From a virus (lineage: Duplodnaviria; Caudoviricetes), in the IMG/VR virus record IMGVR_UViG_3300032053_000004, positions 64,001-128,000 of that record: a stretch of DNA of 64,000 nucleotides; one strand, given 5' to 3'. Under the pieces are notes generated by a model. The model ran no database searches and was not told the DNA's origin. It worked only from the letters and a program-made list of their open reading frames with translations. Position numbers and translations under genes: made by a program. Positions 6,728-53,850 of the stretch are shown piece after piece; within the stretch, counting starts at the first letter, position 1, and the number at the start of each line of letters is the position of its first letter.

Positions 6728-7228
6728 ATGTCTCATCCTACATTCTCAAAAATAGCGGCCGAAATTTCAGTCATGATTCAGTCTCGGACTAGAATCAAAA
6801 CCGCAGCTGAAAGAGACGCTGAATGGCATCGAGTTAATAGTTATATAGCGGACATTTTGAAAGATGTTCATATGACTTATGCTAAACTCGCCCGACTTCA
6901 GAGCGATTTTACTGGGGATGAACTCGTTCAATTAGAAGAATTATCTGAAAGGATTCTTTCTCTCGGTTCTTCAATGTCTAAATTTTCTAAGGCTTTCTAT
7001 GAAGGTCAGTTTAATATGCTTCCTGCGGATACCACGTTTGGTGGCGGTGGCGGTGGCGGTGGTGGCGCTGGGATGCCCGGAGGAGGTTCTCCAATGCCCG
7101 AGGGCGCACCGGGTGGTATAGATATCTTCGAAGAGGAAGAAACCGCCCCGGGATCGGAAGAAGAGGTAGAGGTTGTAGAGGAGGATGAAGGTCAGGGTCA
7201 GGAAGAAGAGGAAGAGGAAGAGGAATGA
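6728..7228 (+). CDS. unknown helical protein with Gly-run and acidic tail; putative internal virion protein
   Basis: SD GAGG; FSKIAAEIS and KTAA motifs; poly-Gly from GGTGGC repeats; Glu-rich C-terminus. Confidence 0.75.
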   Translation: MSHPTFSKIAAEISVMIQSRTRIKTAAERDAEWHRVNSYIADILKDVHMTYAKLARLQSDFTGDELVQLEELSERILSLGSSMSKFSKAFYEGQFNMLPADTTFGGGGGGGGGAGMPGGGSPMPEGAPGGIDIFEEEETAPGSEEEVEVVEEDEGQGQEEEEEEEE

Positions 7229-8025
7229 TCAATATATTTCGAATTGCCAGCAGAATTGCTGGCAAGAGTCTTCTTTTAATGGAAGAAATGGGATACAATC
7301 CATATATTCGTGTAGATAATATAAGTTATTTATTGCCTGAGGAGTGCAGCAGTAGTGAAATTATTGAATCTATATTCAATGCTTGGATAAAGTCTGGATT
7401 TTCAGGTGATTCTCTCATTTCTCAGAAAAAATTATTTGATACCCCAAGTAATTTTCTTCATGAAATTGAACATCTTGTTTTAGATCCTAATTTTGATTTA
7501 AGACTCCAAGCCCATAAATCAAAATTAACTGATTCTCCGTCTCATCATGGGATAGAATCTATGATGGAAGAAGTTATGACTCAACGTCTCTTTCGTTTCA
7601 TTCTTCCTGATGAAGCAGATTGTCATGATGCAATAGATAATAGTATATGGTTTTCACACAATAGTCGTTTAGAAAATGATAAACTGTTGGATATGATTTC
7701 TTCTGCTCCAATGTCTAATTCTACTTTAGAAAATATTAGAGATTCAGCTATATATAAAACAAAACAAAAATATGAGAATGGTGAGATAAATACTAGCCCG
7801 GATCGACCGGGGGTGATAGAAATGAATGTTCAAATCTTAATTGATTTTCTCATGAATGCTTTGAGCAAATTTGATATATGGAAAGAAATTATTTCTGATG
7901 AACAGGAAGAAAAATGGAGAAAATTTGCTCTTAATTTAAGAAATGAATTCAAGAAACTTTCTCGAATTTACGGAATTTCTATGGATTGGGATACTGATCG
8001 AATGATTCAATACGAAGAACAGTAG
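7225..8025 (+). CDS. putative zincin-like metallopeptidase with IASRIA N-terminus
   Basis: FLHEIEH (HExxH) with a downstream MMEEV; N-terminus MINIFRIASRIAG. Confidence 0.5.
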   Translation: MINIFRIASRIAGKSLLLMEEMGYNPYIRVDNISYLLPEECSSSEIIESIFNAWIKSGFSGDSLISQKKLFDTPSNFLHEIEHLVLDPNFDLRLQAHKSKLTDSPSHHGIESMMEEVMTQRLFRFILPDEADCHDAIDNSIWFSHNSRLENDKLLDMISSAPMSNSTLENIRDSAIYKTKQKYENGEINTSPDRPGVIEMNVQILIDFLMNALSKFDIWKEIISDEQEEKWRKFALNLRNEFKKLSRIYGISMDWDTDRMIQYEEQ

Positions 8026-8051
8026 ATATTATCTCAATTGTAAGTTGGTGC

Positions 8052-8849
8052 ATGGTCACACCGACTGTTGAATATTTTCAAATACCTAGTATATGTCCTG
8101 TTTGTTCCGGTCTTTTAACGATAGACGGGCAATTTTTATTTTGTAAGTCCAAAACTTGCCCTGGAAAGCTTTCCGGGGCAATAAGAGTATGGGTGGAACG
8201 TCTTGGGCTCCTTCATTGGGGTGATACTCTCATAGATAAACTATGTGAGAATAAGATTTCTTCCATATCTGATTTATATCGATTATCGATTGAAGATATT
8301 GCTTCCTGTTGTTCAGGAGTCAAATTTGCTGCTAAATGCCATAAAGTTCTACATTTAAATAAGTCAATTCCTTTACAATTATTGATTTCTGCCTTAAATA
8401 TTCCGAATTTAGGTATATCTACTGCTACTGACATAGTTTCATCAGGAATAAGCACTATTAGTTCACTTCTTAGTGTTTCTGTTGAAGATCTTGAAAAAGT
8501 TCCGAATGTTGGAAAATTAACTGCTCAAAAAATATATGATGGTATTCAAGAAAAAAGAGTAGTTATTCTTGAATTAGAAAGTGTGCTAAATATAATCGTT
8601 CCTACATCCGGTCCTCTTGTTAACTTATCATTCTGTATAACTGGTCCTCTTTCAAAACCTAGAAAAGCTATTGAAAAATTGATAATGGATGCTGGAGGAA
8701 CTGTTAAAAGTTCAGTCGGTTCAGGTGTAACCCACTTAGTGACCAACGTTCCAGACACGACTTCTTCAAAGATGCAAAACGCAAAGAAGCATGGGACTCA
8801 GGTTATTTCAGAGATCAATCTTTATTCGCTCATTGAGGCTACGAATTGA
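8052..8849 (+). CDS. ligA: NAD-dependent DNA ligase, C-terminal half (Zn finger, HhH, BRCT)
   Basis: PSICPVC...CKSKTC; GLLHWG, LNIPNLG and VPNVGKLTA HhH motifs; BRCT FCITG..R...IMDAGG...SV...VTHLV..SSKMQNAKKHG. Confidence 0.93.
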   Translation: MVTPTVEYFQIPSICPVCSGLLTIDGQFLFCKSKTCPGKLSGAIRVWVERLGLLHWGDTLIDKLCENKISSISDLYRLSIEDIASCCSGVKFAAKCHKVLHLNKSIPLQLLISALNIPNLGISTATDIVSSGISTISSLLSVSVEDLEKVPNVGKLTAQKIYDGIQEKRVVILELESVLNIIVPTSGPLVNLSFCITGPLSKPRKAIEKLIMDAGGTVKSSVGSGVTHLVTNVPDTTSSKMQNAKKHGTQVISEINLYSLIEATN

Positions 8850-22757: not shown

Positions 22758-24008
22758 ATGCCTATGGATATCCGTAAAGTAGCTTCCAGAGTTGCGATCG
22801 CTAGTGGTCAAGTTAGGACCGCTGGTGTTATTCAATTCCAAAAAGACCAAGGCCCGGTTCGACGTGACATCCGTGTTGATGGGTATGAATGGACTCCTGA
22901 TAGTCTCCGAAATCTAGCCAAAATCCTGTGGGCGTCTCAAAGAGCCCATAGTTATGCCATGTCGGCGTTTAGAATTTTTTCTAAAATGCCATCCTCTCAG
23001 TTCAGCCCTGATGGTCTCATGGGCGGTCGTGGATATATACAATCTATCAAAGATTTGCGTGCGAATTTAGCAAGCTCTGTTGAAATATTATCTTCTTTTA
23101 CTGATACTGTCCATGACGAGATAAACGCGGATCACTGGCGTACAGCTGGTGATTCAGAAGAAGTTTCAGAAGAAGTTTCGGACGCTGTTGAAGACGCTGC
23201 AGATATTAAAGCAAACCCTGAACAATTTGTAGAAAACGAATATACTGAAGAAATTAAGAATCCGGATCCGGATGATTATAATCCATCTGTTGAGTCGGAT
23301 GAGGAAGAAGAAGACGACGAAGAGGATGAAGATTCCTCCGGATTTTCGCAGACTTCTTCAAAAAGAGAAAAAGACGAAGAATTAAAAAAAAAGTTAAGTC
23401 AATCGGCTTTGCCGACTGATGAGAAAGAACAAAGCGTCGGTCTTTCTGATGTAGAAAAACTGATGCATACAACTTCTAGTTATGATGAAATCATCAAGAA
23501 AAAACATATAATTCGTCGTATTGCCAATTCTATCCAATCAATCCCTGGCGGACTATATCCGAACCCTGTTCTTGATCGTCGTGGCCCGGGAGCAGGTACT
23601 GGAGACTTCGGATCCGGTTATAATCCGCCTTGTGATGCTCCATCCGATGATCCGATGGGCGATGGTATGTCTAGCGGAGTTGAAGAAACTCAGTATTTAT
23701 ATGAAGGTCCTGATGCTAATGGAGATGGCGTTACAGGGTACGATGCTCCAACGACCGGGGATCTGACTAAATTAAAAACTTCTGCGGAAAGAGTTGCTAG
23801 AGTTGAAGGATATTCTTGGCTTCCTGGTTCCAGGAACGAGAAGAGTATGGATTATTATCAAAGAGGTTTATCCGATATTGATGTAGCATGGATGCGCGCC
23901 CATGATTCTCCCAATTTAGGAGAGATTGATCCTGACGCTGTGCAGCGGAGGAAAGATAGGGAAGTTTCCAGTCTATTTTGGGATAAAGGAATAAATCGTG
24001 CCTTCTAG
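22758..24008 (+). CDS. acidic putative internal head protein
   Basis: 416 aa; KVASRVA at the N-terminus, RTAG twice, D/E-rich tracts. Confidence 0.8.
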   Translation: MPMDIRKVASRVAIASGQVRTAGVIQFQKDQGPVRRDIRVDGYEWTPDSLRNLAKILWASQRAHSYAMSAFRIFSKMPSSQFSPDGLMGGRGYIQSIKDLRANLASSVEILSSFTDTVHDEINADHWRTAGDSEEVSEEVSDAVEDAADIKANPEQFVENEYTEEIKNPDPDDYNPSVESDEEEEDDEEDEDSSGFSQTSSKREKDEELKKKLSQSALPTDEKEQSVGLSDVEKLMHTTSSYDEIIKKKHIIRRIANSIQSIPGGLYPNPVLDRRGPGAGTGDFGSGYNPPCDAPSDDPMGDGMSSGVEETQYLYEGPDANGDGVTGYDAPTTGDLTKLKTSAERVARVEGYSWLPGSRNEKSMDYYQRGLSDIDVAWMRAHDSPNLGEIDPDAVQRRKDREVSSLFWDKGINRAF

Positions 24009-30380: not shown

Positions 30381-30647
30381 TTGATGGATGATTTAGGTCT
30401 TAAGGATACTATTGCTTGGCGGATAATTCGTCAAGTAGTAGATCATACTTGGGGTGATGAAGAATTTGACGATGAAGAATTTTTAGAGTTGTGTGTTAAC
30501 TTTGTGAAAAATGGCGGCTCTTGGCAAGCTCTTATGGACGGGGATATGGATAGCGTTAAAGCTCTTGAGAATTCTATAGACTCTTTTATGAAAGAAAGAT
30601 CTAAATCGGATGACCCGTCTGACCTTAAAGAATTTCTAAATTGGTAA
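30381..30647 (+). CDS. small acidic hypothetical protein
   Basis: 88-aa ORF between TerL and portal (TTG 30381 or ATG 30384). Confidence 0.7.
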   Translation: MMDDLGLKDTIAWRIIRQVVDHTWGDEEFDDEEFLELCVNFVKNGGSWQALMDGDMDSVKALENSIDSFMKERSKSDDPSDLKEFLNW

Positions 30648-30985: not shown

Positions 30986-32799
30986 TGGCAAGTAAGAAAA
31001 AAATAGGGGTTAACCCTGCTGCTCAAACAACTAGTGGCGGAAGAGTCATTAAACACGTTGATGAACAGGAAGTGCCGAAAAGGCGCTTGACTCGTTTAGA
31101 GAAACAAGCTCGTCGTGAGATGTCTCAGTCTATTCGTTTAGCAACTGGTGGTGGTGGGAATGGGAATTTCGGGAACGCTGGAAGTTCTTCCATAACCAAT
31201 GCTGATTTTTCTTTTTATAGCCCGCAGTTATCTACAGATTTCCTTGAACTCCCCCAATCAGAACGTGAAAAAAGAGAACTTTTTCGTTTTTGGTACAATA
31301 CCCACCCTATAGTTGGAGCAGCCATAGATTTTCATACAGATGTTCCTATGAGCAAGGTTCGTCTTTCCCTTCCTAAAGGGAAAGACATGAAAAGAAATCG
31401 TCAGATTCAACATTTTTACGAGAACATGTGTAAACGTCTGAGGCTTTTTCAGACTTTATATGATGCTACTCATGAATACTGGCTACACGGGAATGTGTTT
31501 GTTTTTTGTGAAGATCAGGAAGTTGATATTCCTGAAGAAATGCTTGTTGACGTAAAACAGGAAGAGGTCGGAGAAGTCGATTATGCCGGGAGGCCTCAAA
31601 AACGTATTGAAGTAGTAAGAGAACCAAAATCTCAATCTGAACAAATTTCAGCTATCAAAGATTATGTTGCAAAACATTATGAAGGATGGCAACGTCTTCA
31701 AATTTTACCCCCGGAACAAGTTAAACTTGAGGTGTTTCAATATACGAACAAAGTTAAGATGGAGCTCATACCATCTGAAAAAGATCGTTTAGTTGTCTTA
31801 AGAGCCCAAGAACAGCATGATGAGGAGGCTGCTCGTATCGCAGATGATATCCCTGAACAGATCAGGGAAAATCTTCTTAACGGTCAGCCAATACCGTTAA
31901 ACTCCAGTCCTTATGATGACTTTTTCTGTTCTTCTTTTTGTTATCATTTAGCGCATAAGAAAAGTCCATATGATGATCGTGGTATTTCAATTCTCGAGAG
32001 ATGCTTAAGAACTCTCCTATATAGTGATAAACTTCGTCAGTCTCAGACGAGTATAGCGAGTCGTGCTATGACGCCCAAACGTGTTGTTTGGGCGGATAAG
32101 ATGAGCTCTACAGACGTTGATGACTTAAGAGACCAAGTAGACCAAGCCCTAATAGATCCTGATTTTAGCATCATAACGAACTTTGAAGTCCATTGGGACG
32201 AGATAGGATCCAGAGACCGTCTTCTCGATCTCGGGACGGAGTATGAAATAAACAACAAACTTCTCATGATTGGGCTTAGAGTCACTGAACCTATGCTCAC
32301 CGGGGAGTCTTCATATTCTGGAGAAAGAATTCATTTAGATGTTATGAACACTATGTATCTGCTATATCGTGAAACTATATGTGAATTTGTTGAGCAATAT
32401 TTATTTGCCCCGGTGGCTGAAAAGAAGGGTTTCTTTGAAGAGGATGAATATGGAAATAGGAATCTTCTATATCCTAAATTACAATTTACTCGTTTAGCTC
32501 TCCGCGACAATACTGAACTTCAGGATTTCATGTTTAATCTTTATCAAAAAGGGTCTTTACCTATTTCTTTTATTCTTGATCTCCTCAATATTGATTCTGA
32601 TGAAGCTTCTGCTCAACTCAAGAAAGATATGTTTACCCCGAATGATTCTAAGTTTAATGATTTGATAACGAAAATTCTTGAATCGGTTGGTGAAGAAATA
32701 GCTAAAGAAACTGATGTTAAAGAGAGACTTATCAAAAATATGGGACTAAAAACGGTAACTAAAAAAGGAGATCGGTTTGCTGAAAAGGAGGAGGGCTAG
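30985..32799 (+). CDS. portal protein
   Basis: 604 aa downstream of TerL; HPIVGAAIDFH, YWLHGNVF, RGISIL, LKLQFTRL resemble portal motifs. Confidence 0.8.
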   Translation: MASKKKIGVNPAAQTTSGGRVIKHVDEQEVPKRRLTRLEKQARREMSQSIRLATGGGGNGNFGNAGSSSITNADFSFYSPQLSTDFLELPQSEREKRELFRFWYNTHPIVGAAIDFHTDVPMSKVRLSLPKGKDMKRNRQIQHFYENMCKRLRLFQTLYDATHEYWLHGNVFVFCEDQEVDIPEEMLVDVKQEEVGEVDYAGRPQKRIEVVREPKSQSEQISAIKDYVAKHYEGWQRLQILPPEQVKLEVFQYTNKVKMELIPSEKDRLVVLRAQEQHDEEAARIADDIPEQIRENLLNGQPIPLNSSPYDDFFCSSFCYHLAHKKSPYDDRGISILERCLRTLLYSDKLRQSQTSIASRAMTPKRVVWADKMSSTDVDDLRDQVDQALIDPDFSIITNFEVHWDEIGSRDRLLDLGTEYEINNKLLMIGLRVTEPMLTGESSYSGERIHLDVMNTMYLLYRETICEFVEQYLFAPVAEKKGFFEEDEYGNRNLLYPKLQFTRLALRDNTELQDFMFNLYQKGSLPISFILDLLNIDSDEASAQLKKDMFTPNDSKFNDLITKILESVGEEIAKETDVKERLIKNMGLKTVTKKGDRFAEKEEG

Positions 32800-32836: not shown

Positions 32837-35473
32837 ATGCGATTTTTACAATCCGATTCTTCATTGAGTCCGAGCGAAAAGGAAGAAAAAGAAGTCGAAA
32901 GACTGATAGGACGGAAGCCTGCTCCAAGTAGAAAATCTGCCCCGAGAAAAGGTCCTAAATTTGATAATAGAAGAAAAAGGATGAAAACTGACGACTCAGA
33001 TACTAAATCTGGGGATAAAGATCTATCTATGAAAAATTCCTCTTTAGCCGATTTGGCCTTAAGAGTTTTCATTTCTACTACAATAGCTGCTGATGAACCT
33101 GATAAATTTGAAGACATTCTTAAATACCCTGGAAGGATTCATGATAATGAATCCTTTGAATATAAATATAAATATGTAGTAGACAAATTAGAAAAACTTG
33201 ACCCTGAAAAATTAAAATTATTTAAAAATACATACGATATACCATTTGGTAAATATATTAAAGAAAAGAAATGGGACATAATTGATTTTGAATTAGGTAA
33301 GGCTTTAAGTTATATTAAAAAAGAAGAAAAAAGCAAGAAAAGCCCGGAAGAAATCCTTGAAGAGAAAGTAGAAAATAAGAAAGATATAAGTAAGAAGAAA
33401 AAAGATCTATTTTTTAAATTTAAGAGAGTTTCTCCAAAACTCGCTGAAGAATTTGAAAATACCGAACTCAATGAAGAAAAATTAGATGAAATAAAGTCTG
33501 ACGCTTTAGATGGTAAGCTTCGTAATAAATTATCTAAAACAAATGATGTTGGAGAAATCCTATCATTAGTTGAGAGAAGATGGCCAGAGGGTTCTTCTCT
33601 TTCATTTGGTATTAAATATAATATTTTAAACGCTTTAAATGATCGTATTGAAGATATGGGGGATTCTATACCAACTTGGTTATACGCTTCTTTTTTCAAA
33701 ACTAGCCCGGATGTTGAAGAATTACATAATAAAATAATTGAAAATTCTGAACACGGGTCTGATTCCTTCAATAAAATTAGACCCGGAGATTTATTAATAT
33801 TTGCAACCATAGCATCCCTCTTCCAAAAATTAAGTAAAAATCCTAATGTTGATGCTAAAAATCTTTCCCTTAAAAAGGATATTGATGTTGTAAGAAAACA
33901 AATAGAGTCAGAATCAGAATTGATTTCTGATACCCAAGCTTTCATGAAAGCTTGGGATCAAGCTGCTGAACAATTTAAAACCCATGAAGGGAAAGAAGGA
34001 TGGAAATGGGATGATGGTCATGGTAAATTATTAAAAAGTGTTGAGAGTTTATTTAATCTTAAGAATGAAGAGAAAAAATCTGAAGTTGATCCCTTTCTGT
34101 TGATGGAAAACTTTAGAGATAAAATTACTAAAAAATATGGTAAACTACCTAAAGAAGCAGAAAATATGTATAACGGATTAATGAGAAAGAGTAAACAAGC
34201 TTCTAATAAAGCTTCTGTTTCAGGACCAATGTCTGTTAAGACGGCAACTTTCCATGGATTGGTTGAACAGGGCCATCCTTCTGGTCCAACTAATACTGGA
34301 TATAAATCTTATCATAAGAGATATTTCGGTAAACCTCAATATGAATCTATACTTAAATTTGCTAAGGAATTATTAGATGAGGATTGGTTTAAATATGGAT
34401 GGGATGATGGTTCTATTGATGCCCAGCAGAGGGCAGCTTTAGATATATCCATTCAGACCGGCGATGATAATTTATATCAGAGTAAGATAGACGCAGAAAC
34501 ATATGATATGTTATTGAACAGACTTGCTGGGTGGGGTCACGATTCATTTTCAGAAACTGTTTTCCCTGTGGAAAAAGGTTCCAGACGGAGCGCATCGATC
34601 ATGCAAAATCAGATCAAGAACATACTTCGCATAGCCAGTGATATACGTAATGATAATCCGAAGGCTGCCTTCGAGATCGTAAAGAATCTGCGTTCTTTAG
34701 TTGGAAGAACTGCTGAGGACCAGCAGCAAGGTCAGCAACAGGAGCAGCAAGGCCAGCAGCAAGAGCAGCAGGGTGGGAAGAATATAAAAGATAAAAAAGA
34801 TTCTGGGTTTAATAGGGAGGATGAAGAAATACTTGATGAAACAGAACAAAATGTTTTTAAAGGTGGAGAGCATAATCCTCAAAAGACCATAAACGATCTT
34901 AAGGAAGCTTTAGATAGTTTAGATATTGACGATTTTGTTTCGGCTTTTGAAGAATTAGGAAGTCTTGCTGATTTTTTGAAAAAAAATAAAGGTAAAAAAG
35001 AGGCTTCTGTTAATCACAAAATTGCTATAATGGAAGCCCTAGAAGGCTTAGAAGATATATCTGAAGATGAAATAGAGAAGGCCTTTAAGAACATGCAGAA
35101 GGTTCTTAAAGATGACATTGATGATCCGAAGGATATTGACTCGGAAGACATTGAAAAGTTGATAAAAGACATGATAGACCAACTCAGTAAAGATGTTAAA
35201 CCCTCTTCAAAAGAGGCTTCGGAAGCAACTGTTGGGGTTGGCGTTTTAATACGTCTAGCCCATAATAATCCAGGGATTCGTCGGGTTCTTCTTCCTGTCA
35301 TCTTGGCAGCGAAAAAGAAACCCAGTAAGAAAAAGAAGCCCGTTCCTCCAGCTTTCTTGAAAGGCAAGAAAGATAAGAAGGAAGAGGACAAGAATAAGCC
35401 GAAAACTTCTAAGAAGAAAAAGAAGAAGAAGGTTTCTTCGGTTATCCTTACGAAGGAAGACGGAAACTGGTGA
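32837..35473 (+). CDS. large charged putative internal head/core protein
   Basis: 878 aa; K/E-rich with a Q-run after RTAE, several [KR]xA motifs and a Lys-rich C-terminal tail. Confidence 0.8.
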   Translation: MRFLQSDSSLSPSEKEEKEVERLIGRKPAPSRKSAPRKGPKFDNRRKRMKTDDSDTKSGDKDLSMKNSSLADLALRVFISTTIAADEPDKFEDILKYPGRIHDNESFEYKYKYVVDKLEKLDPEKLKLFKNTYDIPFGKYIKEKKWDIIDFELGKALSYIKKEEKSKKSPEEILEEKVENKKDISKKKKDLFFKFKRVSPKLAEEFENTELNEEKLDEIKSDALDGKLRNKLSKTNDVGEILSLVERRWPEGSSLSFGIKYNILNALNDRIEDMGDSIPTWLYASFFKTSPDVEELHNKIIENSEHGSDSFNKIRPGDLLIFATIASLFQKLSKNPNVDAKNLSLKKDIDVVRKQIESESELISDTQAFMKAWDQAAEQFKTHEGKEGWKWDDGHGKLLKSVESLFNLKNEEKKSEVDPFLLMENFRDKITKKYGKLPKEAENMYNGLMRKSKQASNKASVSGPMSVKTATFHGLVEQGHPSGPTNTGYKSYHKRYFGKPQYESILKFAKELLDEDWFKYGWDDGSIDAQQRAALDISIQTGDDNLYQSKIDAETYDMLLNRLAGWGHDSFSETVFPVEKGSRRSASIMQNQIKNILRIASDIRNDNPKAAFEIVKNLRSLVGRTAEDQQQGQQQEQQGQQQEQQGGKNIKDKKDSGFNREDEEILDETEQNVFKGGEHNPQKTINDLKEALDSLDIDDFVSAFEELGSLADFLKKNKGKKEASVNHKIAIMEALEGLEDISEDEIEKAFKNMQKVLKDDIDDPKDIDSEDIEKLIKDMIDQLSKDVKPSSKEASEATVGVGVLIRLAHNNPGIRRVLLPVILAAKKKPSKKKKPVPPAFLKGKKDKKEEDKNKPKTSKKKKKKKVSSVILTKEDGNW

Positions 35474-36024: not shown

Positions 36025-36732
36025 ATGTTCCGGAGAGCCTTTGTTGACGATCAACTTTTAGCCCGTGAATTTCACACGGGTGATTTTGTTCGTCATTCAG
36101 ATCTCCACGATCTACTTTTGTCTCCTTATGCTGGACGGGTTCTTTATTCAAACCCAGATACAGGCAAAGTTTCTGTCCAATGGCCATGGGGGGCCGAACA
36201 AGACTCTCCGTCCCAGCTTGTTCGGCTCAATATGGAATTATTGGAGTTCTTCCCTCCAATGCTAATTGATCAAAGTTACTCCTCCTGGGAAGGAGCGAGA
36301 AACATTGATGATAAACAGACTTTAAAAGAAGATGACAAGTGGCGTAAGTCTCTAGCTTCTCGAGTGGCTTCTCGTTTTGAGGAAGCTACTGGCCCTATTT
36401 GGCGTTCTGCCTGTAAAGCTTGGCGTCAAGGGAAGAACGAAATACAAGCTTTTACGAGTCTCCATTCTATTTTCGGAGATCAATTCGGGACCGACACGGT
36501 TCGTTTAACTGTCTCAAATTTATACGAACATAGTCGCAGGCTTTCCATATACTATAAGAATAATAAAAGAAAATATAAAGTAACTCAAAAAGAAAAAAAT
36601 TCAGGAGACTTGAAATGCCCTCGATGTAGGACTCCAGGCTCCATTAAGCCAAGAGTTTACCGTCAGGGAAAACGTGTTCTTCAGTGTAGAAACTGCGGAT
36701 TTTCCATACATCCCGGTGATCTTGTAAAATAG
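36025..36732 (+). CDS. protein with SH3/KOW-like N-domain and C-terminal Zn ribbon
   Basis: FHTGDFVR...GRV...GKVSVQWP; LASRVASRF; CPRC...CRNC. Confidence 0.75.
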   Translation: MFRRAFVDDQLLAREFHTGDFVRHSDLHDLLLSPYAGRVLYSNPDTGKVSVQWPWGAEQDSPSQLVRLNMELLEFFPPMLIDQSYSSWEGARNIDDKQTLKEDDKWRKSLASRVASRFEEATGPIWRSACKAWRQGKNEIQAFTSLHSIFGDQFGTDTVRLTVSNLYEHSRRLSIYYKNNKRKYKVTQKEKNSGDLKCPRCRTPGSIKPRVYRQGKRVLQCRNCGFSIHPGDLVK

Positions 36733-37020: not shown

Positions 37021-38007
37021 GTGAATCAGAATTTGCAAAATCTTCTTAAGATTTCGAATGAGATTGACCCTGTTCTCGGGGAATCTCTGAGAAAGAATCT
37101 TATTAATATAACTAAATTTAAGAAGATTTCTGTCGTAAACCCTGACGTTCAAAAATTTGAAGAGCGTCTTCAGACTCTCGTAAATTCTCTAAAATCAGTC
37201 AATAAAGATATCAAGAAGGCTCTTGATAATTTAGACGTTGAAGAAATTGATGAATGGTTTACTAAAGAACTTGATAAAATTAATGAATTAGATGAAGCGG
37301 CTGAAAGAATAGAAGTTTCTAAATTTAGCAGTATTGCTTCCCGTATAGCTGAAATAGAAGATACTGCCGGTATTAAAGACTGGGTTAAGAACAAGTTCAA
37401 GAAAAAGCCAAAAGCCGAACCAAAATCAGAAGAATCTGAATCTATGGCTCCGTCCTATCAAATGGATGAGAGTCGGATGGATGATTTTGTTGAAGGCAAA
37501 GATGATTGGGGCGATGCTTCTGCTTACATAGAAGCGGAATCCCGTGAAAAGAATGAGTTACTAGGTGAAATTGATAATTTCCTAAAAGAGTTTAAAGAGA
37601 CAGAAAAAGGTAAGCCTGTCAGGAAAAATCTTGAAAAACTTTTCGAAAAGTCCAAAGGCCTAATTAAGCGTGGAGAGAAGTTCGTAAAAGGTTTCCGTGA
37701 TCACCTAAAAGAACCCGGGGCTTGGCTCCCTCGTGATGAGGAGAAGTCCGATGCCAAGCCGAAAAATCTCAAGAAAACTGTTGAGCATTATTCTGATATG
37801 CTCCGGGAAAATCTCGGAGACGAAGATAAAACCATCCAGTCTTTAAGAGAATTCTTTAAAGCTGTCGGACCCATGATCAAAGAAGAAAAACAGGCTTCTA
37901 CTACTTCTTCCATCATAAAACAACTTTCTAGAAAAGCTTCTGAAGACCCTTCTTTGAGGAAGAAGCTCATACCCATAATCAATTTAGCCTTGAATTTCAA
38001 TTCTTAA
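37021..38007 (+). CDS. charged putative internal head protein
   Basis: 328 aa; SIASRIAE, KQAS, and C-terminal LSRKASEDPSLRKKLIPII. Confidence 0.8.
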   Translation: MNQNLQNLLKISNEIDPVLGESLRKNLINITKFKKISVVNPDVQKFEERLQTLVNSLKSVNKDIKKALDNLDVEEIDEWFTKELDKINELDEAAERIEVSKFSSIASRIAEIEDTAGIKDWVKNKFKKKPKAEPKSEESESMAPSYQMDESRMDDFVEGKDDWGDASAYIEAESREKNELLGEIDNFLKEFKETEKGKPVRKNLEKLFEKSKGLIKRGEKFVKGFRDHLKEPGAWLPRDEEKSDAKPKNLKKTVEHYSDMLRENLGDEDKTIQSLREFFKAVGPMIKEEKQASTTSSIIKQLSRKASEDPSLRKKLIPIINLALNFNS

Positions 38008-38028: not shown

Positions 38029-39552
38029 ATGGCCTGGAAAAAGACCGCTAAAGCTATAGTTACTCATAATAATATTCAGTTTGATGAGTGGATGGATGAA
38101 CTCCGTCGTAATAACGAGGGGGCCGTACCTGAATCTCAAATAACTCGAGTAGCTAAAACAGTTTTACGTAAGGCTGACCCGAAGCAGTTTCTTTTAAGTC
38201 ATGCGACTATAGTCGCATCAGTTGATACTTTTACTCCGAAAAATGCTAAGACTGGGCGTCAAATGGCCCAGGGAATCCAAATTGATGTCAGATATCCGAA
38301 TTTCCGGATCAATAAAGAATGTCAAGAATTAATCAATAATAATGGAGATGCCTGGGATCGTTCTTTGCTTCTTTCTACGTATCGAACCTTCATAGGTGCT
38401 CAAAATTATTTAGAGCATATACAAGTTCCAGAGCTCTCAAAGGGATTTATTGTTGACGCTATTGCCCGTGATTTAGGTCATACTTGCTATATAGATATAT
38501 TAGTCGCTACTGATAGGAAACATCAAAAATTAGTTAATGATATTTTATCTGGGGATATTTCTGGTCTTTCAATGGGTTGTGTCTCTCTTTTTACTATTTG
38601 TACGAAATGTGGGAACGTAGCTGCTGACGACACTCAACTTTGTCCGTGTATTCAATATGAAGGAAAAGGAACCATTTTCAAAGATGAAAATGGGATGGAC
38701 AGTAAAATTGCTGAACTTGTCGGACATGTGAGTTCGCCAAATTCTAATCAATTTATTGAAGCTTCTTGGGTTCGTAACCCTGCCTTCCGTGGAGCTGTTC
38801 GTCGAAATATATTAAATCCCAACACGGATCAAATTGCGGCTAAACTTGATGTTGCTTCTCAAGTTTATGAAATACGTTCATCTCAACCATTACCTGACGG
38901 TTTGAAGAAAGCGGCTTCAGTTAGATTTGCAGAAGGGCAAGAAGATGATTCCGCCCAAGATGATTCCGCCCAAGATGATTCGGATTCTCAAGATCAATCT
39001 CAAGATCAGGGTGATGAATCATCAGACTCCGGGGCTGAATCTAAGATTGATGAACTTGTAAACAAAACTCAAGAGCTTTTGCTTGAGGGAATTGTTAAAT
39101 CCTTAACTGATAAACTCGGTCCAAAGCCGGAAGATGTCGGATTTGTACAAGCTCCTATTGATTTAACTAACGAAAACGACAATCTAGTCAGATCTTCAAT
39201 AGATTTTAATCGAAAGCTTCAGAAGGCTTTCCCGAAAAATGTTAAGTTGGTTAAATGGGCGACTCGAGCTTATAAAATTGTACATGAAGGTGGAGTAAAA
39301 TCCATTCGTGCAAACAAAATGAATCCACGTGATTTAGTCGCACTTTCTTGGATTGAAGACCGAATAAACAATAAAGTTTATAGTCCAATTTTATATAAAG
39401 CAGTCATGTCTGCCGGGCCGATCATCAAGTATCCAAGCCCAAAATCTTATTTGGCAGCTTGCAGAGTTAGGATTGGAAGAAACGTCTCTAATAAAGAGTC
39501 TAAGTTTCTTATTTGGAAGGGGAAAATTGCGTCTTTTGCAATTTCCAATTGA
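38029..39552 (+). CDS. prohead (capsid maturation) serine protease with C-terminal extension
   Basis: NYLEH, LSMGC and FIEASWVRNPAF resemble HK97/U35-type protease motifs; directly upstream of scaffold and MCP. Confidence 0.8.
   Translation: MAWKKTAKAIVTHNNIQFDEWMDELRRNNEGAVPESQITRVAKTVLRKADPKQFLLSHATIVASVDTFTPKNAKTGRQMAQGIQIDVRYPNFRINKECQELINNNGDAWDRSLLLSTYRTFIGAQNYLEHIQVPELSKGFIVDAIARDLGHTCYIDILVATDRKHQKLVNDILSGDISGLSMGCVSLFTICTKCGNVAADDTQLCPCIQYEGKGTIFKDENGMDSKIAELVGHVSSPNSNQFIEASWVRNPAFRGAVRRNILNPNTDQIAAKLDVASQVYEIRSSQPLPDGLKKAASVRFAEGQEDDSAQDDSAQDDSDSQDQSQDQGDESSDSGAESKIDELVNKTQELLLEGIVKSLTDKLGPKPEDVGFVQAPIDLTNENDNLVRSSIDFNRKLQKAFPKNVKLVKWATRAYKIVHEGGVKSIRANKMNPRDLVALSWIEDRINNKVYSPILYKAVMSAGPIIKYPSPKSYLAACRVRIGRNVSNKESKFLIWKGKIASFAISN
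38942..38981 (+). repeat. 15-nt tandem repeat (QDDSA)
   Basis: AAGATGATTCCGCCC x2 plus a partial third copy. Confidence 0.9.
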
Positions 39553-39672: not shown

Positions 39673-40911
39673 ATGCGCCAGCGTTCAACTTGGATCCGAT
39701 CAGCAAATGCACTACCCACTGCCCCGAAAGGGAAAGGGCGTCGTGCGGATATCTACAATATGAACCAGGAGCATCCACAGCCGTCTCCTGTTGAATACGA
39801 GAACGGAAGTCCGGACTCATGGGCAGAATCTCTTGCTCCGTATTCTCATATTGAAAAAGAATACGAAGGCGGCCATGTTAAGCGTAATGAGCTTAACTTT
39901 GCTGAATTCCGCGATGATACGTGGGATCACAAAGATGCCGATAAGTGGAACGGCAAAGGCAAGTACGATAACCATCGTAGTGCTTCCGAGCGTAAGGCTC
40001 AGGCTTGTGAGAAATTGGCGCGTGGTCTTCTTAAGACTGCCAATCCTAAGCTGATTGAAGATCAGGCTCTTGATTTCATGTGCCTTCCTCCTAACGTTGT
40101 AACGGCGACGATCAAGCGGATTCAGGAGACTTCTCCTGCAGCGCTTGCCCCCGCGAATCGTTACAATCGTGCATTGGCTTGCACTAAGCTTTCAGCTAAG
40201 ATGCTCGGAGACGAAGCTCCGGAGAATCTCGTTGAGAAGCTTGCCACGTTGTTCATGAATATTGATGACCCGACTCTGAAGTCCATGGTTCGGGTTGTTG
40301 CCTCGGTTCGTTTTGCTGAGCAGGATGAACAAGAGGAGCAACAGGAGCAACAGGGCCAGCAGGAGCAGCAGGGCCAGGATGAAGAGCAGCAGCAGGAGCA
40401 ACAGGGCCAGCAGGAGCAACAGGGCCAGCAGGAGCAACAGGGCCAGGATGAAGAGCAAGAGGAACAGCAAGAACAGCAAGCGCAAAATGAAGAATGCGCT
40501 ACTGGTTTGACGTCTGAAGAGATGTCCATGCTGGACCAAATGCTCAACCCGGGAATGGGTCAAGAAGCTCCGGGAATGGGTCAAGAAGCTCCGGGAGCTG
40601 AAGTTTCTCCACCGGCCATGCCAGCGATGGCCAGCGATTTCTCCATCTCCTTTGACGGAGATGATGACGGCTCAGAAGGTCTCCCTCATATATCGTCACT
40701 TGACGTTTTGTTCAATGACGATCCTGAGGTCCAGGCTCAACGTGAAATCGTTGCCGCTTCTCAGGAGCAACGGGCTCGTGAGCAAGGTGGATACTCGATC
40801 AGTCGTACTGCCTCTGCTAAGGGCGCAAAAAAGCTTGGTCAAGTCACTAAGCCCAAGGCCTCGAGCATTGATACGGCGCTCGAGAATCTCTGGGAGCGCC
40901 CAGGCGCGTGA
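39673..40911 (+). CDS. scaffolding protein (putative)
   Basis: Lies between protease and MCP; helical with a Q/E low-complexity tract; SD GGAGG. Confidence 0.7.
   Translation: MRQRSTWIRSANALPTAPKGKGRRADIYNMNQEHPQPSPVEYENGSPDSWAESLAPYSHIEKEYEGGHVKRNELNFAEFRDDTWDHKDADKWNGKGKYDNHRSASERKAQACEKLARGLLKTANPKLIEDQALDFMCLPPNVVTATIKRIQETSPAALAPANRYNRALACTKLSAKMLGDEAPENLVEKLATLFMNIDDPTLKSMVRVVASVRFAEQDEQEEQQEQQGQQEQQGQDEEQQQEQQGQQEQQGQQEQQGQDEEQEEQQEQQAQNEECATGLTSEEMSMLDQMLNPGMGQEAPGMGQEAPGAEVSPPAMPAMASDFSISFDGDDDGSEGLPHISSLDVLFNDDPEVQAQREIVAASQEQRAREQGGYSISRTASAKGAKKLGQVTKPKASSIDTALENLWERPGA
40318..40488 (+). repeat. Gln/Glu-rich tandem coding repeat (EQQGQQ)n
   Basis: Repeated GGAGCAACAGGGCCAGCA-type units. 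Confidence 0.9.
40549..40596 (+). repeat. 21-nt tandem repeat (PGMGQEA)
   Basis: CCGGGAATGGGTCAAGAAGCT x2 plus CCGGGA. Confidence 0.9.
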
Positions 40912-43922: not shown

Positions 43923-45092
43923 GTGAACTTTTTTGACATCGCTCGAAAAATATTTTCAGCCGATCCCGAGAAGAAAAAGGGGCCGGGACCGGCAGCCGCA
44001 AAAACTCTTCTTAAAGAATTAATATCAGATCATTTAGACAAATTGGAGGAAGAACATCTGAAATCATCGGATGTTGAACCTCGGACTATTTCTCAACTCG
44101 AGCTCAATTTTCTTCTTAAAAAAATTAGAACTTCTCCTTATTACAGCATACTTTTTAAAGGTGATGACGAAAGATCTCATAAATTTGTTCAGGAATTTTT
44201 ATATGATTTAAATAAAGAAGACTTAAGGAAATCAAGGAAAAATAAAGAAAACTCAAGGAAAAAGGATCAGTGGATCATGGATTATTCAAGAGATCCGATT
44301 AAGCGTGCAAACGTTGCTTCTCTCATAAAACAGATCGCTTTTAAAATATCAAGCGATAGAACTCTTTCGAATTCTGTTCGAGATGCTTTCGTTTTTGACG
44401 CTGCCCAGGTAGTACCCGGGGAGCTTTCTAATGGCTTGTATGACACAAATCCTGCAGGAAAAGGATTTGACGTTCATGGTAAAAAAGGATTCGTATCTTT
44501 TGCTATAAAAGCAGACTCTTTTTCATCAAACTATTTAATAGGAGGGATTCTATTTAAATTAGAATATGACTCTAGCTTATATAAATCAGAATCTGATGAC
44601 TCTGGAAAATATCCCACTGGGCTCAAACATTCAAAGGGTTTGCAGACTGTCACATTTAGTACAAAAGCTGGATACTATAATAAACTTTTAGAAGGTGGTT
44701 ATTCTTCTCCTAAAGATTTAGGTGGATATATAATTGATCTTGATGATCAAGAAAATATAATCGATTCAATTATTGTTGATCCAGCTAAGTTTAAAGCTGG
44801 TGTTAATGGAATAGTAAATGATGTTCTTTCAAATCCTCCTCCCAGCTCTCAGTCTACTAAATATAAAGGTGTTGTTTTAAAAAAACAACAACAACAAATA
44901 GCACCGACAACTAGTGCAAGAGCACTCTTGCAGTGGATTGTAGGTCAAAAACAAACTGAAGTATTTGGTAGTCAAATAAATAATCTTGCTCAAGCTTTAT
45001 CTGCAGGGTCTGGATCTTCATTTGCAACAGAACACCAAAAAGTAACTGACTATTTCAAAAATCGTAATTGGGTGATAAATCATAATAAATGA
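43923..45092 (+). CDS. putative internal virion/cargo protein
   Basis: 389 aa; N-terminus NFFDIARKIF and internal IKQIAFKIS motif. Confidence 0.75.
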   Translation: MNFFDIARKIFSADPEKKKGPGPAAAKTLLKELISDHLDKLEEEHLKSSDVEPRTISQLELNFLLKKIRTSPYYSILFKGDDERSHKFVQEFLYDLNKEDLRKSRKNKENSRKKDQWIMDYSRDPIKRANVASLIKQIAFKISSDRTLSNSVRDAFVFDAAQVVPGELSNGLYDTNPAGKGFDVHGKKGFVSFAIKADSFSSNYLIGGILFKLEYDSSLYKSESDDSGKYPTGLKHSKGLQTVTFSTKAGYYNKLLEGGYSSPKDLGGYIIDLDDQENIIDSIIVDPAKFKAGVNGIVNDVLSNPPPSSQSTKYKGVVLKKQQQQIAPTTSARALLQWIVGQKQTEVFGSQINNLAQALSAGSGSSFATEHQKVTDYFKNRNWVINHNK

Positions 45093-48474: not shown

Positions 48475-49017
48475 TCACGAAGCTGCAATTTTTGCTGCTA
48501 TGACCCGAATTTTTTCTTGAACTTCGTGGATTAAAGCAATTTTCTTTATAGAACCTGTTCTCCCCATATCGTTTATTATTTCTTTCGCAACTGATCCTAT
48601 CAGATCTGTTGTTATATACTTCTTTACGATTTTTTCAAGATATGGGTCATCTTCTTGTTCTGAAAAAGGTATTTCACTTGGTGGAACTGGTTTTGCTGCA
48701 AGTGCGTAATCGAGATCACCTTGCAGTTTTCTTACCATCAATTTTAAAGTAGAATCTTTTGGTCTAATAAAAATATCTTTAACTATTGAATTACTAATTT
48801 CGTCATCTAGTATTCTTTCCGCATCTTGACGAATTTTAACCGGGTCTTTTTGACTTTTTGCTGGCATACCTTGAGTTATATTTTGAAATATTAAATTGAC
48901 TAATGTTTCATTTAATGAATCTAAAGCGTCGTATATAGCTCCTTCTATTAATTTGGTTCCAAATTCTTTTTGAAGATAGTCTTGTAAATCGTGGCTGAGT
49001 GCAGCAATTCTTCCCAT
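48475..49017 (-). CDS. helical hypothetical protein ending in an IAAKIA motif
   Basis: Probable start ATG 49017; C-terminus RTGSIKKIA...IRVIAAKIAAS. Confidence 0.7.
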   Translation of the reverse strand: MGRIAALSHDLQDYLQKEFGTKLIEGAIYDALDSLNETLVNLIFQNITQGMPAKSQKDPVKIRQDAERILDDEISNSIVKDIFIRPKDSTLKLMVRKLQGDLDYALAAKPVPPSEIPFSEQEDDPYLEKIVKKYITTDLIGSVAKEIINDMGRTGSIKKIALIHEVQEKIRVIAAKIAAS

Positions 49018-49040
49018 GAAAACCACAATTTACAAGAATT

Positions 49041-50968: not shown

Positions 50969-50992
50969 ACCATTTATCGGCTCGTCTGAACG

Positions 50993-51355: not shown

Positions 51356-52782
51356 ACTTAGTGTATGTTTGTGGTGTGAACGAGAAAGGATTGGATAACA
51401 AATCAAAGATTAGTATTAACTGTATATGTGGAAAATTGTTTCTTATTTCGTTTAAACAGTTAAAACACAATAAGAAAATTAATAGATCAAATATTTGTAG
51501 AAGTTGTTCAATCAAAAAACTCTGGGAAAACCCTGATTATAGAATTAGGGTTAATGATTCTCTTAAATCGCTTGATAAAACACTGTTAAAACAAAAAATA
51601 TCTAAAAAATCCAAGTTAATGTGGGAAAATTCTGAATACAGGGAAAATCAAAAAAATATCCATACGAGTTCCGACTATATTAAAGAGACTTCTGAACGAT
51701 CAAAAAAACTATGGGACAATGATGATTTCAGAACAAATCAACTAAAGATAAGAAACGATCCGATTTGGATTGAAAAACAATCCAAATCTATGAAGAAACT
51801 ATGGGAAAACTCTGACTATCAAAATAGAGTTTCTAGTTCTTTATCAAAAGTTTTCATTAAGGGTTACAAGTCATCACTGGAAATAGTTACGCATAATATA
51901 CTTGAGTCCATGCATGTTCGTTTTGAAGAGCAAAAACCTTTAGGCCCTTATATTTTTGATTTTTTCTTACCAGAACATGATACTTTCATAGAATGTCAAG
52001 GTGAATACTGGCACTCAATCAAAAAGGCTTCGTCTAAAGACGCTTCTAAGTTTTCTTACTTTGAAAAATCTCGTCCTAATTCTAAAATTTTATATTTGCA
52101 TGAACGAGATTTTTTAAATCCGAAGATTGTAGAGAAAAAAATAGAAGAAATACTGAAAATTAAAATTAAAGTTGATATCGTTGATTTTTCTTTTTCTGAA
52201 GTAATACTGAAGGAGTTGGACCCTAAGATAAAGAATAAATCACACAATTCCTTACCGAAAGAATTTTTAGACTCATTCCATTATGCTCAGTTCGGTAGGT
52301 CATCCAAGGTAATATATGGAGCTTTTTTGAAAGAGAAATTAATTTCTGTTTGTAAATTTTCTACTCCTATAAGAAAAGAAGTTGCAACTTCTTTAAATTA
52401 TTCTTACTCGGAAGTTTTAGAACTCGATCGTTTTTGCATACATCCGGAGTATCAAAAGAAAAACTTCGCCTCTTGGTTTATTTCGAAGTGTATGAAAATG
52501 GTTTTTGAGAAATACTTAAAGATCAATCATTTAGTATCATTCGCTGATTCGACCTATGGACACTCCGGGGTCATATATAAAGCCGCAAATTGGAAAGAAA
52601 TTGGAAATACTAAGCCAGATTATCATTACATAAATGATGGCGGTTGGATATTGCATAAAAAAACTCTTTATAATCATGCGGTTAAAATGGGGAAAAATGA
52701 AAAAGGGTACTCATCAGAGTATGGATATAAGAAAGTATATGGAAAGTTAAAAACAAAATTTATATTTTCTCGGTTTAATTGA
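51352..52782 (+). CDS. fusion: Zn ribbon + WxNxxYR repeats + Vsr/DUF559-like endonuclease + Mom-like GNAT acyltransferase
   Basis: CICG..CRSC; LWENPDYR, MWENSEYR, LWDNDDFR, LWENSDYQ; GPYIFDFF...FIECQGEYWH; ELDRF...LVSFAD...GHSGVIYKAANW..IG. Confidence 0.8.
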   Translation: MNLVYVCGVNEKGLDNKSKISINCICGKLFLISFKQLKHNKKINRSNICRSCSIKKLWENPDYRIRVNDSLKSLDKTLLKQKISKKSKLMWENSEYRENQKNIHTSSDYIKETSERSKKLWDNDDFRTNQLKIRNDPIWIEKQSKSMKKLWENSDYQNRVSSSLSKVFIKGYKSSLEIVTHNILESMHVRFEEQKPLGPYIFDFFLPEHDTFIECQGEYWHSIKKASSKDASKFSYFEKSRPNSKILYLHERDFLNPKIVEKKIEEILKIKIKVDIVDFSFSEVILKELDPKIKNKSHNSLPKEFLDSFHYAQFGRSSKVIYGAFLKEKLISVCKFSTPIRKEVATSLNYSYSEVLELDRFCIHPEYQKKNFASWFISKCMKMVFEKYLKINHLVSFADSTYGHSGVIYKAANWKEIGNTKPDYHYINDGGWILHKKTLYNHAVKMGKNEKGYSSEYGYKKVYGKLKTKFIFSRFN

Positions 52783-52794
52783 GAATTTATTTAG

Positions 52795-53850
52795 ATGTCC
52801 AGTAATTCTCCTCGTGGTTTTATATTATCTGATGCGGCAATGTATGCGTTTGAGTGTCAAGAAGTATATCCTGATTTATTGAGTTTTGCTGTTGCAATTC
52901 CCGATCATTTAAAACAGTTATTTTTAGTCCCAGTTACGGTTGAACCGATGTCGATTGCATCGGTGGCTTCTCGTGTTGCATTTGATGATAGTGGGGCCGG
53001 ATATGAAACAGATTCGGCTGATTTGTTTGGGACCAAAACTTTTGTTGTTGAAAATGATCCGGAGCCAACCGTAACGGATTCCGACCCCGGATCTATGTTT
53101 GATATTGATGGATATTGGGGAAAGACCCATCAAGATGATGGGACGGACGAAAATTGGCAAGTCCCGTCAGACACAAGTTACATGTCTGACATTGATATCA
53201 CCAATTATTGGTCTTACCCTTATAGATCTGAAGAAAAACCTCGTCATTCTTCATTACGGCAAGTAGCATTCTTCAAATTGTCTCTTAAACCTGAGAGGCT
53301 AATTACTGAAGTCCCGAAGAAAATCAAAGAAAATGCGGAAGTTTGTTCTGTTAGTTTAGTATCATATGATAAGCGTGGTCGGATTTTTTCTTTTAAAGTT
53401 GATTGCGGGAATAAACCGAAAAATGTCCGAGCTTCTTTAACTAGTTTAAATGAAGTTGCTATGACTTGTTCTTGTCCGTTCTGGAGATGGAACGGACCCG
53501 AATTTAATGCTAAATCAAATAAATTTTTGCTAGGAAAACCTAACGGAAAGGCTTCTCCTCCGAATGTTCGTGATCCTGATCGGGAGTTTTGGCTCTGTAA
53601 GCATACTTTTGCTGTTTTAAAACGTTTAGACACTTTCGTCCAACAGATAGTTGATGAAAACTGGGGTTTGGACGATGATGATCTTCTTAGAGAAATAGAC
53701 GAAGAATGGGATAGATTAATTGCAGTTTCTGAAGAGACTTCAGAAGAACTAGAAGAAGAAAACCCAGAGATAGAAGTTAAAATTGAGGAGGAGGAACCAG
53801 AGGAGGAACCCGAGGTTGAGGAGGAACCTGAGGAGGAATTGAAAAAGTAA
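52795..53850 (+). CDS. SWIM zinc-finger protein with acidic termini
   Basis: MTCSCPFW...LCKH (CxC-xn-CxH); SVASRVA motif; Glu-rich tail. Confidence 0.8.
   Translation: MSSNSPRGFILSDAAMYAFECQEVYPDLLSFAVAIPDHLKQLFLVPVTVEPMSIASVASRVAFDDSGAGYETDSADLFGTKTFVVENDPEPTVTDSDPGSMFDIDGYWGKTHQDDGTDENWQVPSDTSYMSDIDITNYWSYPYRSEEKPRHSSLRQVAFFKLSLKPERLITEVPKKIKENAEVCSVSLVSYDKRGRIFSFKVDCGNKPKNVRASLTSLNEVAMTCSCPFWRWNGPEFNAKSNKFLLGKPNGKASPPNVRDPDREFWLCKHTFAVLKRLDTFVQQIVDENWGLDDDDLLREIDEEWDRLIAVSEETSEELEEENPEIEVKIEEEEPEEEPEVEEEPEEELKK

Follow-up and report, generated by a model that had tools for sequence, protein, structure and literature searches.

In phage T4, the proteins IPI, IPII, IPIII and Alt carry a capsid-targeting sequence (CTS; MKTYQEFIAE) that is removed by the gp21 prohead protease, and the ipI-III and alt genes lie away from the head genes. 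Herpesvirus assemblins (MEROPS S21), which cleave after Ala, act at release (R) and maturation (M) sites in pUL26/pUL26.5 that read (V/L/I)-x-Ala followed by Ser. Encapsulin targeting peptides are Gly/Ser/Leu-rich and usually C-terminal. In phiKZ and SPN3US, mass spectrometry has proven that head-protein propeptides are cut at (S/A/G)-x-Glu by gp175/gp245 (PMC10052503, PMC7411985). Here we describe a hexapeptide, [ILV]ASR[IV]A, that recurs in otherwise unrelated proteins encoded by bases 64,001-128,000 of one 202,143-bp virus contig (IMG/VR record IMGVR_UViG_3300032053_000004); this whole 64,000-nucleotide stretch is referred to as the window. With moderate confidence, we read its extended form, Φ-x-[KR]-[IV]-A-S-R-[IV]-A (Φ, hydrophobic), as a lineage-specific signal of about 10 residues for head targeting and processing that would be read by the prohead protease. 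The tag would work like the T4 CTS and the herpesvirus R and M sites, but its sequence belongs with neither. In the literature searched, the hexamer did not turn up in connection with phages, and the phage G papers include no cleavage rule.

Motif counts were made over the proteome of the whole genome, comprising 269 greedy open reading frames (ORFs) with a total of 64,471 residues. The strict motif occurs nine times, with five copies within the window, while composition predicts 0.032 (about 280-fold enrichment) and shuffling within proteins (200 rounds) yields 0.025 on average and never more than one. The looser pattern proposed by the first-pass annotation, [IV]A[SA][RK][IV]A, likewise has nine matches in the genome versus about 0.08-0.1 expected. 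The annotation's claim of a motif shared across unrelated proteins is therefore real when set against a composition background (nine versus about 0.03). Other reading frames of the genome hold no strict copies, with the exception of one repeat-encoded small ORF. The Ser codon can be TCT, TCA, TCC or AGC and the Arg codon CGC, CGT, CGA or AGA, differing by site. Because the codons vary between copies, the constraint is on the peptide and not on the DNA, and a DNA-level repeat is ruled out as the cause of the motif. The motif is strongly non-random, and these results support a functional short peptide rather than a chance pattern.

Two classes can be distinguished among the strict copies, namely an N-terminal tag and internal copies at module joints, which agrees with the earlier placement of the motif at termini and junctions. 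The N-terminal class covers about 11 residues, M-x-Φ-x-[KR]-IASRIA, in which the tag begins at residue 6-8 after Met, with a hydrophobic residue at -3 and Lys/Arg at -1; this distance allows for internal Met starts in genome ORF 34627 and in ORF 22758. Examples include MLNLSK-IASRVA, MDLHK-IASRVA, MNFHK-IASRIA, MINIFR-IASRIA and MDIRK-VASRVA. Five of the nine strict sites start at ORF residues 6-15; since the first 15 residues make up about 6% of proteome positions, we estimate a binomial probability of about 1e-4 for this placement. The internal copies are found at residues 57-154 and are preceded by Ser (KFSS-IASRIA, KISS-IASRIA, WRKS-LASRVA and SIAS-VASRVA). The five strict copies in the window are the following.

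7243..7260, plus strand: N-terminal tag IASRIA, residues 7-12 of ORF 7225-8025, which starts MINIFR-IASRIA-G
22779..22796, plus strand: N-terminal tag VASRVA, residues 8-13 of ORF 22758-24008, with RTAG seven residues downstream
36352..36369, plus strand: internal LASRVA in the head module, residues 110-115 of ORF 36025-36732
37333..37350, plus strand: internal IASRIA, residues 105-110 of ORF 37021-38007, the gene directly upstream of the protease gene
52963..52980, plus strand: internal VASRVA in a SWIM-finger protein, residues 57-62 of ORF 52795-53850

Strict copies are absent from the ribonucleotide reductase, the RecD2-type helicase, the ligase halves, the large terminase, the portal, the major capsid protein (MCP) and the GT51 transglycosylase, consistent with the first-pass remark that recognized replication enzymes lack the motif. 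About half of the instances listed in that annotation, which were located by ORF start and not by motif position, fit the pattern, and the others are loose variants: FSKIAAEIS, RRIANSI, SARIAKS, FDIARKIF, QIAFKIS and RRIAAAI/RHIASAI are off-pattern. Among these, the N-termini of ORF 6728 and ORF 43923 are likely diverged tags, the internal loose ones are unsupported, and RRIAAAI/RHIASAI belong to a paralogous 40-residue leader module described below. The IAAEIS of ORF 6728 has a tag-like distance from the start, a hydrophobic residue at -3 and Lys at -1, and falls outside the strict pattern; weak relatives of ORF 43923 at two metagenomic loci (L023 and L026) begin with a canonical IASRVA tag. 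A position-specific scoring matrix (PSSM) built from the nine strict sites adds IANRIA (genome ORF 7550) and the start of genome ORF 144942 (MNIFSLAS-IAIRIA), with a further near-match, SAERVARVEG, inside ORF 22758. With the strict sites masked, the looser patterns are just 2-3 times enriched, partly from the paralogous 40-residue leaders. Less exact copies in the window are the following.

6752..6769, plus strand: probable diverged N-terminal tag IAAEIS in ORF 6728-7228, which starts MSHPTFSK-IAAEIS
33053..33070, plus strand: degenerate LALRVF, residues 73-78 of the 878-residue protein after the portal, ORF 32837-35473
43938..43955, plus strand: probable diverged N-terminal tag IARKIF in ORF 43923-45092, which starts MNFFD-IARKIF
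48484..48501, minus strand: C-terminal IAAKIA, residues 176-181 of ORF 48475-49026, fitting the looser pattern and not the strict one

Of the records in the phage collection, the uncultured 485-kb phage LR745208.1 and Tunturiibacter phage Tunturi_5 stand closest to the window, with Bacillus phage G gp19 and cluster C mycobacteriophages farther away; a megablast of 20 kb of the window against this collection gave no match. Nearer relatives were obtained from a metagenome scan with the protease, which gave 47 loci, and from an IMG/VR scan with the ORF 22758 family, which gave 21 further loci including complete genomes of 360-436 kb (loci and genomes are numbered with L and G, respectively). Complete relatives of 360-390 kb have 6-11 copies each, mainly N-terminal and on unrelated proteins. 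A degenerate DNA pattern for the hexamer was scanned over 13 IMG/VR records, with the reversed pattern as control.

G004, 393 kb: 11 pattern matches, 1 control match
G007, 377 kb: 9 pattern matches, 0 control matches
G009, 363 kb: 8 pattern matches, 2 control matches
G011, 308 kb: 6 pattern matches, 1 control match
G005, 436 kb: 4 pattern matches, 4 control matches
All 13 records: 52 pattern matches, 8 control matches

By our own reading, about two-thirds of these matches code for Ser-Arg, versus about 28% if the degenerate positions were random. Most copies in the relatives are N-terminal, with the form M-x(3-6)-[RK]-IASR[IV]A, while some are C-terminal and some proteins hold two to four; the spacing between start and N-terminal tag is fixed in this genome as well as in G004 and G006-G011. 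When residues 1-16 were removed, BLAST clustering divided 24 N-terminally tagged proteins of this genome and the relatives into 21 clusters, which rules out paralogy as the cause of most copies. A single copy is present in the 485 kb of LR745208.1 and none in Tunturi_5, and we conclude that the motif is restricted to one clade.

The motif is also retained within protein families. The ORF 22758 family has at least 196 homologues, and its 113 alignable N-termini show the consensus L-x-[KR]-I-A-x-R-[VI]-A-[SG], followed by a linker of 3-10 residues and a near-invariant VRTAG. Over these 113 sequences, Leu is found at -3 in 89, Lys/Arg at -1 in 73, Ile in 92, the first Ala in 106, Arg in 76 (plus Lys in 16), Val/Ile/Leu in 108, the final Ala in 90 and Ser/Gly as the next residue in 88. 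An AlphaFold2 (AF2) model of ORF 22758 predicts a helix (residues 2-14) and, with good confidence, a helical bundle (residues 47-165), residues 15-46 between them being unstructured; searches of Pfam, PHROGs and the ESM Atlas, a profile search of the PDB and a comparison of the AF2 model with BFVD returned nothing usable on the function of this family. In the SWIM-finger family of ORF 52795, with at least 160 homologues, the motif columns of 120 sequences have the first Ala in 99, Ser in 66 or Ala in 18, Arg in 100 (plus Lys in nine), Val/Ile/Leu in 117 and the final Ala in 108. Here linkers that differ in length flank the motif on both sides, S-R-R-[YF]-A-D-G often follows it, and some homologues carry it as a tandem duplicate; PHROGs gave no structural annotation for the neighbours of ORF 52795. 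In the ORF 32837 family, I-A-x-R-[IV]-A is found around residues 70-85, behind a conserved basic N-terminal domain, with IAARVA, IALRVA or IAFRIA in orthologues, the window copy being degenerate (LALRVF). Tunturi_5 labels that had been considered for ORFs 32837 and 36025 (‘DNA ejection protein’ and ‘virion structural protein’) were dropped for lack of BLAST homology. As for the protein with the tag at 7243..7260, ORF 7225, it is an orphan without homologues among 5.8 billion proteins.

The link to head assembly comes from the protease and the scaffold. The head module of the window starts with the large terminase (ORF 28419), the portal (ORF 30985) and the 878-residue protein (ORF 32837), and continues with ORFs 35470, 36025 and 37021, the prohead protease (ORF 38029), a scaffold-like protein (ORF 39673), ORF 41130 and the MCP (ORF 41824, phrog_2522). 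Both the protease and the scaffold-like protein have a peptide near-identical to the tag where a folded domain gives way to a linker.

38029..39552, plus strand: prohead protease gene, proposed reader of the motif (phrog_18299 head maturation protease, E = 2.7e-10)
38914..38934, plus strand: ASVRFAE at the junction of protease domain and acidic linker, residues 296-302 of ORF 38029-39552
39673..40911, plus strand: scaffold-like gene between protease and MCP, assigned from position and composition
40300..40320, plus strand: ASVRFAE at the junction of the scaffold N-domain and a Glu/Gln-rich tract, residues 210-216 of ORF 39673-40911

In more than 20 relatives, the protease domain ends with the consensus G-Φ-K-K-A-A-S-(x)-[RK]-x-A-[QED], with an acidic or Gln/Gly-rich linker next; the window has KKAASVRFAEGQEDD at this point, and L023 and L024 have KKAASRIAQ. 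The scaffold, whose orthologues are conserved in 32 loci, has an N-domain that in 11 relatives, representing 10 distinct sequences, ends with Φ-A-[SA]-(x)-R-[VIFL]-A-[QED] ahead of the Glu/Gln tract; the window has VVASVRFAEQDEQ here and L023 has TVAASRVAQ. In L023/L024, the protease thus has AASRIAQ and the scaffold AASRVAQ. The two proteins are unrelated in their C-terminal parts. By eye, the tag F-H-K-I-A-S-R-I-A lines up along its full length with the protease junction L-K-K-A-A-S-(V)-R-F-A. A hidden Markov model (HMM) trained only on junctions of other genomes was then run on this proteome, and it ranked the protease junction first, the scaffold junction second and tags at 3, 4, 6, 7, 10, 15 and 20, so that seven of the nine strict tags are in its top 20; the evidence is this ranking, as the scores of single tags are not significant. 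Foldseek with the AF2 model of the protease (mean predicted local distance difference test, pLDDT, of 70) places T4 gp21 at the top (5jbl, probability 0.97-0.99), then herpesvirus proteases, at weak E-values of about 2e-3. Judged from this predicted structure and the phrog_18299 match, the phage encodes a protease of the gp21/assemblin fold, and the motif stands at the domain-linker junctions of both protease and scaffold, as would suit a substrate of such an enzyme. The junction falls in a low-confidence stretch of the model, residues 286-337, which is probably flexible. In phage G gp19, LEKVAS and LLKIAS are found close to the C-terminus. The first-pass annotation had offered a docking helix or a protease-recognition helix as alternatives, and this idea is still the best reading, which the protease and scaffold junctions now tie to the head-assembly machinery at the level of sequence. 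The annotation's further inference, by which the motif would mark its bearers as internal virion components irrespective of gene location, is not supported here. A complex prediction of protease residues 45-285 with ORF 22758 residues 1-45 scored 0.01, versus a mark of 0.32, a score that weighs on neither side of the binding question.

Several other observations concern the head genes. The portal C-terminus (window 32770-32796) reads ...KKGDRFAEKEEG, with an R-F-A-E that resembles the protease and scaffold junctions. A protein of about 90 residues encoded between terminase and portal (window 30381-30647; L061:17051-17323; L066:17561-17821; L067:17094-17381; L074:17039-17296) ends with IASRVA/IAARIA in the relatives and not in the window copy. 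The protease genes of several relatives have large intein-like inserts (L001:8504-11281; L002:10001-13054; protease ORFs of L021-L026), making ORFs of 880-1020 residues versus 507 in the window copy, which is without an insert.

The tagged proteins include kinase-like, ferritin-like, zinc-ribbon and orphan proteins. The tagged ferritin-like protein is found in G004 (L079:1566-2060, minus strand; PF00210, E = 3e-11), and among its closest homologues five to six have the short tag, about four have the long two-helix leader and six have a third type of N-terminus. On the phage ferritin-like (Dps-type) family (P0242-P0259), this third type is a Pro-rich ...TASEGxHP... stretch, and a large set of proteins of 600-1100 residues begins with a related ferritin-like domain. 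Adjacent tagged paralogues (L052:1655-2296 and 2303-2956; genome 34654-35298 and 35302-35958) have a weakly kinase-like C-terminus with HPGN...IDWE, for which the Pfam APH match (E of about 1e-3) is below the cutoff. Also outside the window, a 53-residue ORF (L052:4964-5125; genome 37963-38124, minus strand) reads MNFSR(IASR)6IAS... and arises from a 12-nt tandem repeat, the tag being expanded six times.

Mosaic proteins in the relatives link the short tag to the 40-residue leader. The mosaics of G004 and G006 hold two to four IASRVA copies; the 554-residue one of G004 (L081:1639-3303, minus strand) has four motif copies at module joints, and that of G006 has 345 residues (L103:1627-2664, minus strand). 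Residues 297-420 of the G004 protein, with IASRVA ahead of them, are homologous to the leader-bearing genome ORF 146874 (E = 7e-16), and another of its modules is the portion of genome ORF 164559 behind its IASRIA; these mosaic modules also exist as separate tagged genes in the window's genome. Short tag and leader occur on the same cargo domains at the same position, both for the G004 protein with ORF 146874 and for the ferritin-like homologues. The leaders in this genome read MKPSQVAIALRRIASAIQASKNPD...LVARDLKKIISKIAG, with a helix 1, L-R-R-I-A-S-A-I-Q-A-S, that fits the tag pattern as Φ-x-[KR]-I-A-S-x-I, and some leaders end with S-K-I-A-G/E. Unlike the leader, the short tag is a single helix without the NPD turn or the second helix, and the Arg of the tag is not conserved in the leader; the PSSM from the strict sites does not detect helix 1 of the leaders. 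Helix-(N/D)P-helix hairpins that look like the lineage's 40-residue leader are found at the C-termini of ORF 32837 (window 35380-35460; LIRLAHNNPGIRRVLLPVIL) and ORF 37021 (window 37930-38000; LSRKASEDPSLRKKLIPIINL). In LR745208.1 (L050 ORFs 22734 and 30361), MTTLRSKLIRLAHENPALRPQLLPL begins both genes flanking the MCP.

We propose that a short amphipathic helix would carry the protein into the assembling procapsid alongside scaffold and protease, and that the prohead protease, of the T4 gp21/herpesvirus assemblin fold, may recognize this peptide. The cut would come after R-Φ-A, where Arg is P3 and Ala is P1, or else at another [KR]-x-A that lies a few residues further downstream (RTA-G or RYA-DG), and would remove the tag or part the modules. 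This proposal builds on the observed enrichment, selection on the peptide, portability, conservation over hundreds of homologues, likeness to the junctions and protease fold; the binding, the scissile bond and the packaging are steps that we infer, and we count this against it. Other points weigh on the same side. Among this genome's tags, the hexamer is followed by I, R, G, S, E, F or Q, more variation than a scissile bond usually shows. The motif often lies within a longer predicted helix (IASRVA-x-R-[WFY]-L), which fits docking better than a substrate. Its third residue, Ser, is free to vary in the ORF 22758 family, and at the protease junction KKAAS, not R-x-A, is the most invariant part, so that the cut could be elsewhere (between A and S). 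Genome-wide, bare [RK]-Φ-A-[QED] is not enriched (22 versus 19.6). The tagged genes are dispersed outside the structural module, and inspection by eye revealed no late promoter shared upstream of tagged and head genes. The two copies in head-module ORFs are poorly conserved among orthologues: R-V-A of ORF 36025 is kept in three of 15 (window included), and this LASRVA may be a structural helix, while the copy of ORF 37021 lies in a linker of variable length, where four of 10 orthologues, counting the window, have A-S-R and the motif site is followed by a conserved [TA]AG-x-KDW.

In comparison with the T4 CTS, the tag shares a length of about 10 residues and an N-terminal position on unrelated proteins encoded off the head genes (the 24 proteins in 21 clusters), as well as a resemblance to the linker junctions, putative processing sites, of the phage's own protease and scaffold, and the same protease fold. 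The sequences are unlike, with T4 sites ending in Φ-x-Glu and those here in Arg-Φ-Ala, and only here is the peptide also internal at module joints, tandem and interchangeable with a two-helix leader of 40 residues. Packaging and clipping are proven in T4, whereas here the system is known from sequence. With herpesvirus assemblin it has in common the fold match and the order of protease domain, motif, linker and C-terminal domain, with the motif also in the scaffold, Ala as the likely P1 residue and Ser/Gly often next. In contrast to the herpesvirus arrangement, the putative sites here have Arg at P3 and, upstream of it, a conserved I-A-S, the protease gene does not enclose the scaffold, the two C-terminal parts are unrelated and the motif doubles as a portable cargo tag. 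The likeness to phiKZ/SPN3US is that one protease motif there bounds N-terminal stretches, 10-200 residues long, on many head and ejection proteins of a jumbo phage (PMC10052503, PMC7411985). The motif and the lineage are different, and the present system, deduced from genome data, has a conserved helix beyond a three-residue site. Encapsulin cargo-loading peptides resemble the tag in being short terminal peptides on unrelated cargo, including ferritin-like proteins, for an HK97-fold shell, and differ in their Gly/Ser/Leu type of consensus and in that the tag here is mostly N-terminal.

The main rival to targeting and processing is a pure docking helix that stays uncut, a cargo-loading peptide for the inner face of the HK97-fold shell, the scaffold or the portal, which we hold to be unlikely on balance. 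Protease and scaffold would then carry the peptide since they are recruited too, and any cleavage would take place at a separate nearby [KR]-x-A. Consistent with this, the ORF 22758 tag is modelled as an isolated helix, followed by a flexible linker of 3-10 residues and then the conserved RTAG; Ser/Thr, typical helix N-caps, precede the internal copies, and IASRVA-x-R-[WFY]-L continues the motif amphipathically. The presence of the tag on a ferritin-like protein, a classic encapsulin cargo, its exchange with the two-helix leader on the same cargo domains and its tandem (IASR)n expansions also favour docking. However, the sequence is unlike encapsulin targeting peptides, known autoprocessing and polyprotein layouts resemble both the bead-like mosaics and the placement where protease and scaffold meet their linkers, and Ser/Gly follows the motif in most ORF 22758 homologues. 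Docking is compatible with targeting and processing, and the T4 capsid-targeting sequence does both.

Two further explanations rank below both of these accounts. The peptide could be an address for a hub other than the capsid, such as an AAA+ ATPase/metallopeptidase pair, a tail or injection machine, or a cytoplasmic compartment, with a junction likeness that is convergent or unrelated. We regard this as quite improbable, even though the tagged genes are mainly outside the head module (in G004 at about 66, 89, 175 and 324 kb versus head genes at about 255-265 kb), as the sole proteins of known role in which the peptide runs through the family all belong to head assembly (protease, scaffold and the large protein behind the portal), and T4 packaged proteins are likewise encoded far from the head genes. 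Far less credible still is a peptide with no function of its own, spread by duplication or recombination of an N-terminal cassette or representing a favoured helix-forming sequence. Such spread could account for adjacent tagged paralogues (genome ORFs 34627 and 35302, and three neighbouring genes in G004, L084), for the 12-nt tandem repeat coding for (IASR)6 and for near-alike starts on unrelated bodies (MINIFRIASRIAG in the window versus MDIFIRIASRIAG in G011), but it conflicts with the roughly 280-fold enrichment, with synonymous codons that differ by up to three bases between copies, and with a motif kept in about 120 homologues at 45-60% identity, where the flanks vary in length and sequence.

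If targeting and processing hold true, a sequence rule would predict head-carried proteins of uncultured 200-450 kb phages, including enzymes encoded far from the structural genes, and such proteins would possibly enter the host with the DNA. The rule would also represent a new specificity of the gp21/assemblin fold in phages, with Arg at P3 and Ala at P1. In addition, the so far unexplained 40-residue leader of this lineage would be connected with head assembly, and large capsids could be loaded with foreign proteins by means of a small, portable tag. A broader version, which we put forward as tentative and rather doubtful, is programmable capsid loading, in which a single peptide code for docking and clipping is common to the scaffold, the head protease and fast-changing cargo (kinase-like, ferritin-like, SWIM-finger and orphan proteins), and the short tag and the 40-residue leader are one address; this would be an encapsulin-like system in a virus, with a herpesvirus-like Ala-specific protease rule new to phages.

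Besides the head module, the window encodes a class II ribonucleotide reductase, a RecD2-type helicase, a GT51 transglycosylase and a Mom-like protein. At its end (60001-64000), the G+C content rises to 0.60 from about 0.37, within an open frame of at least 1614 residues that runs off the window.

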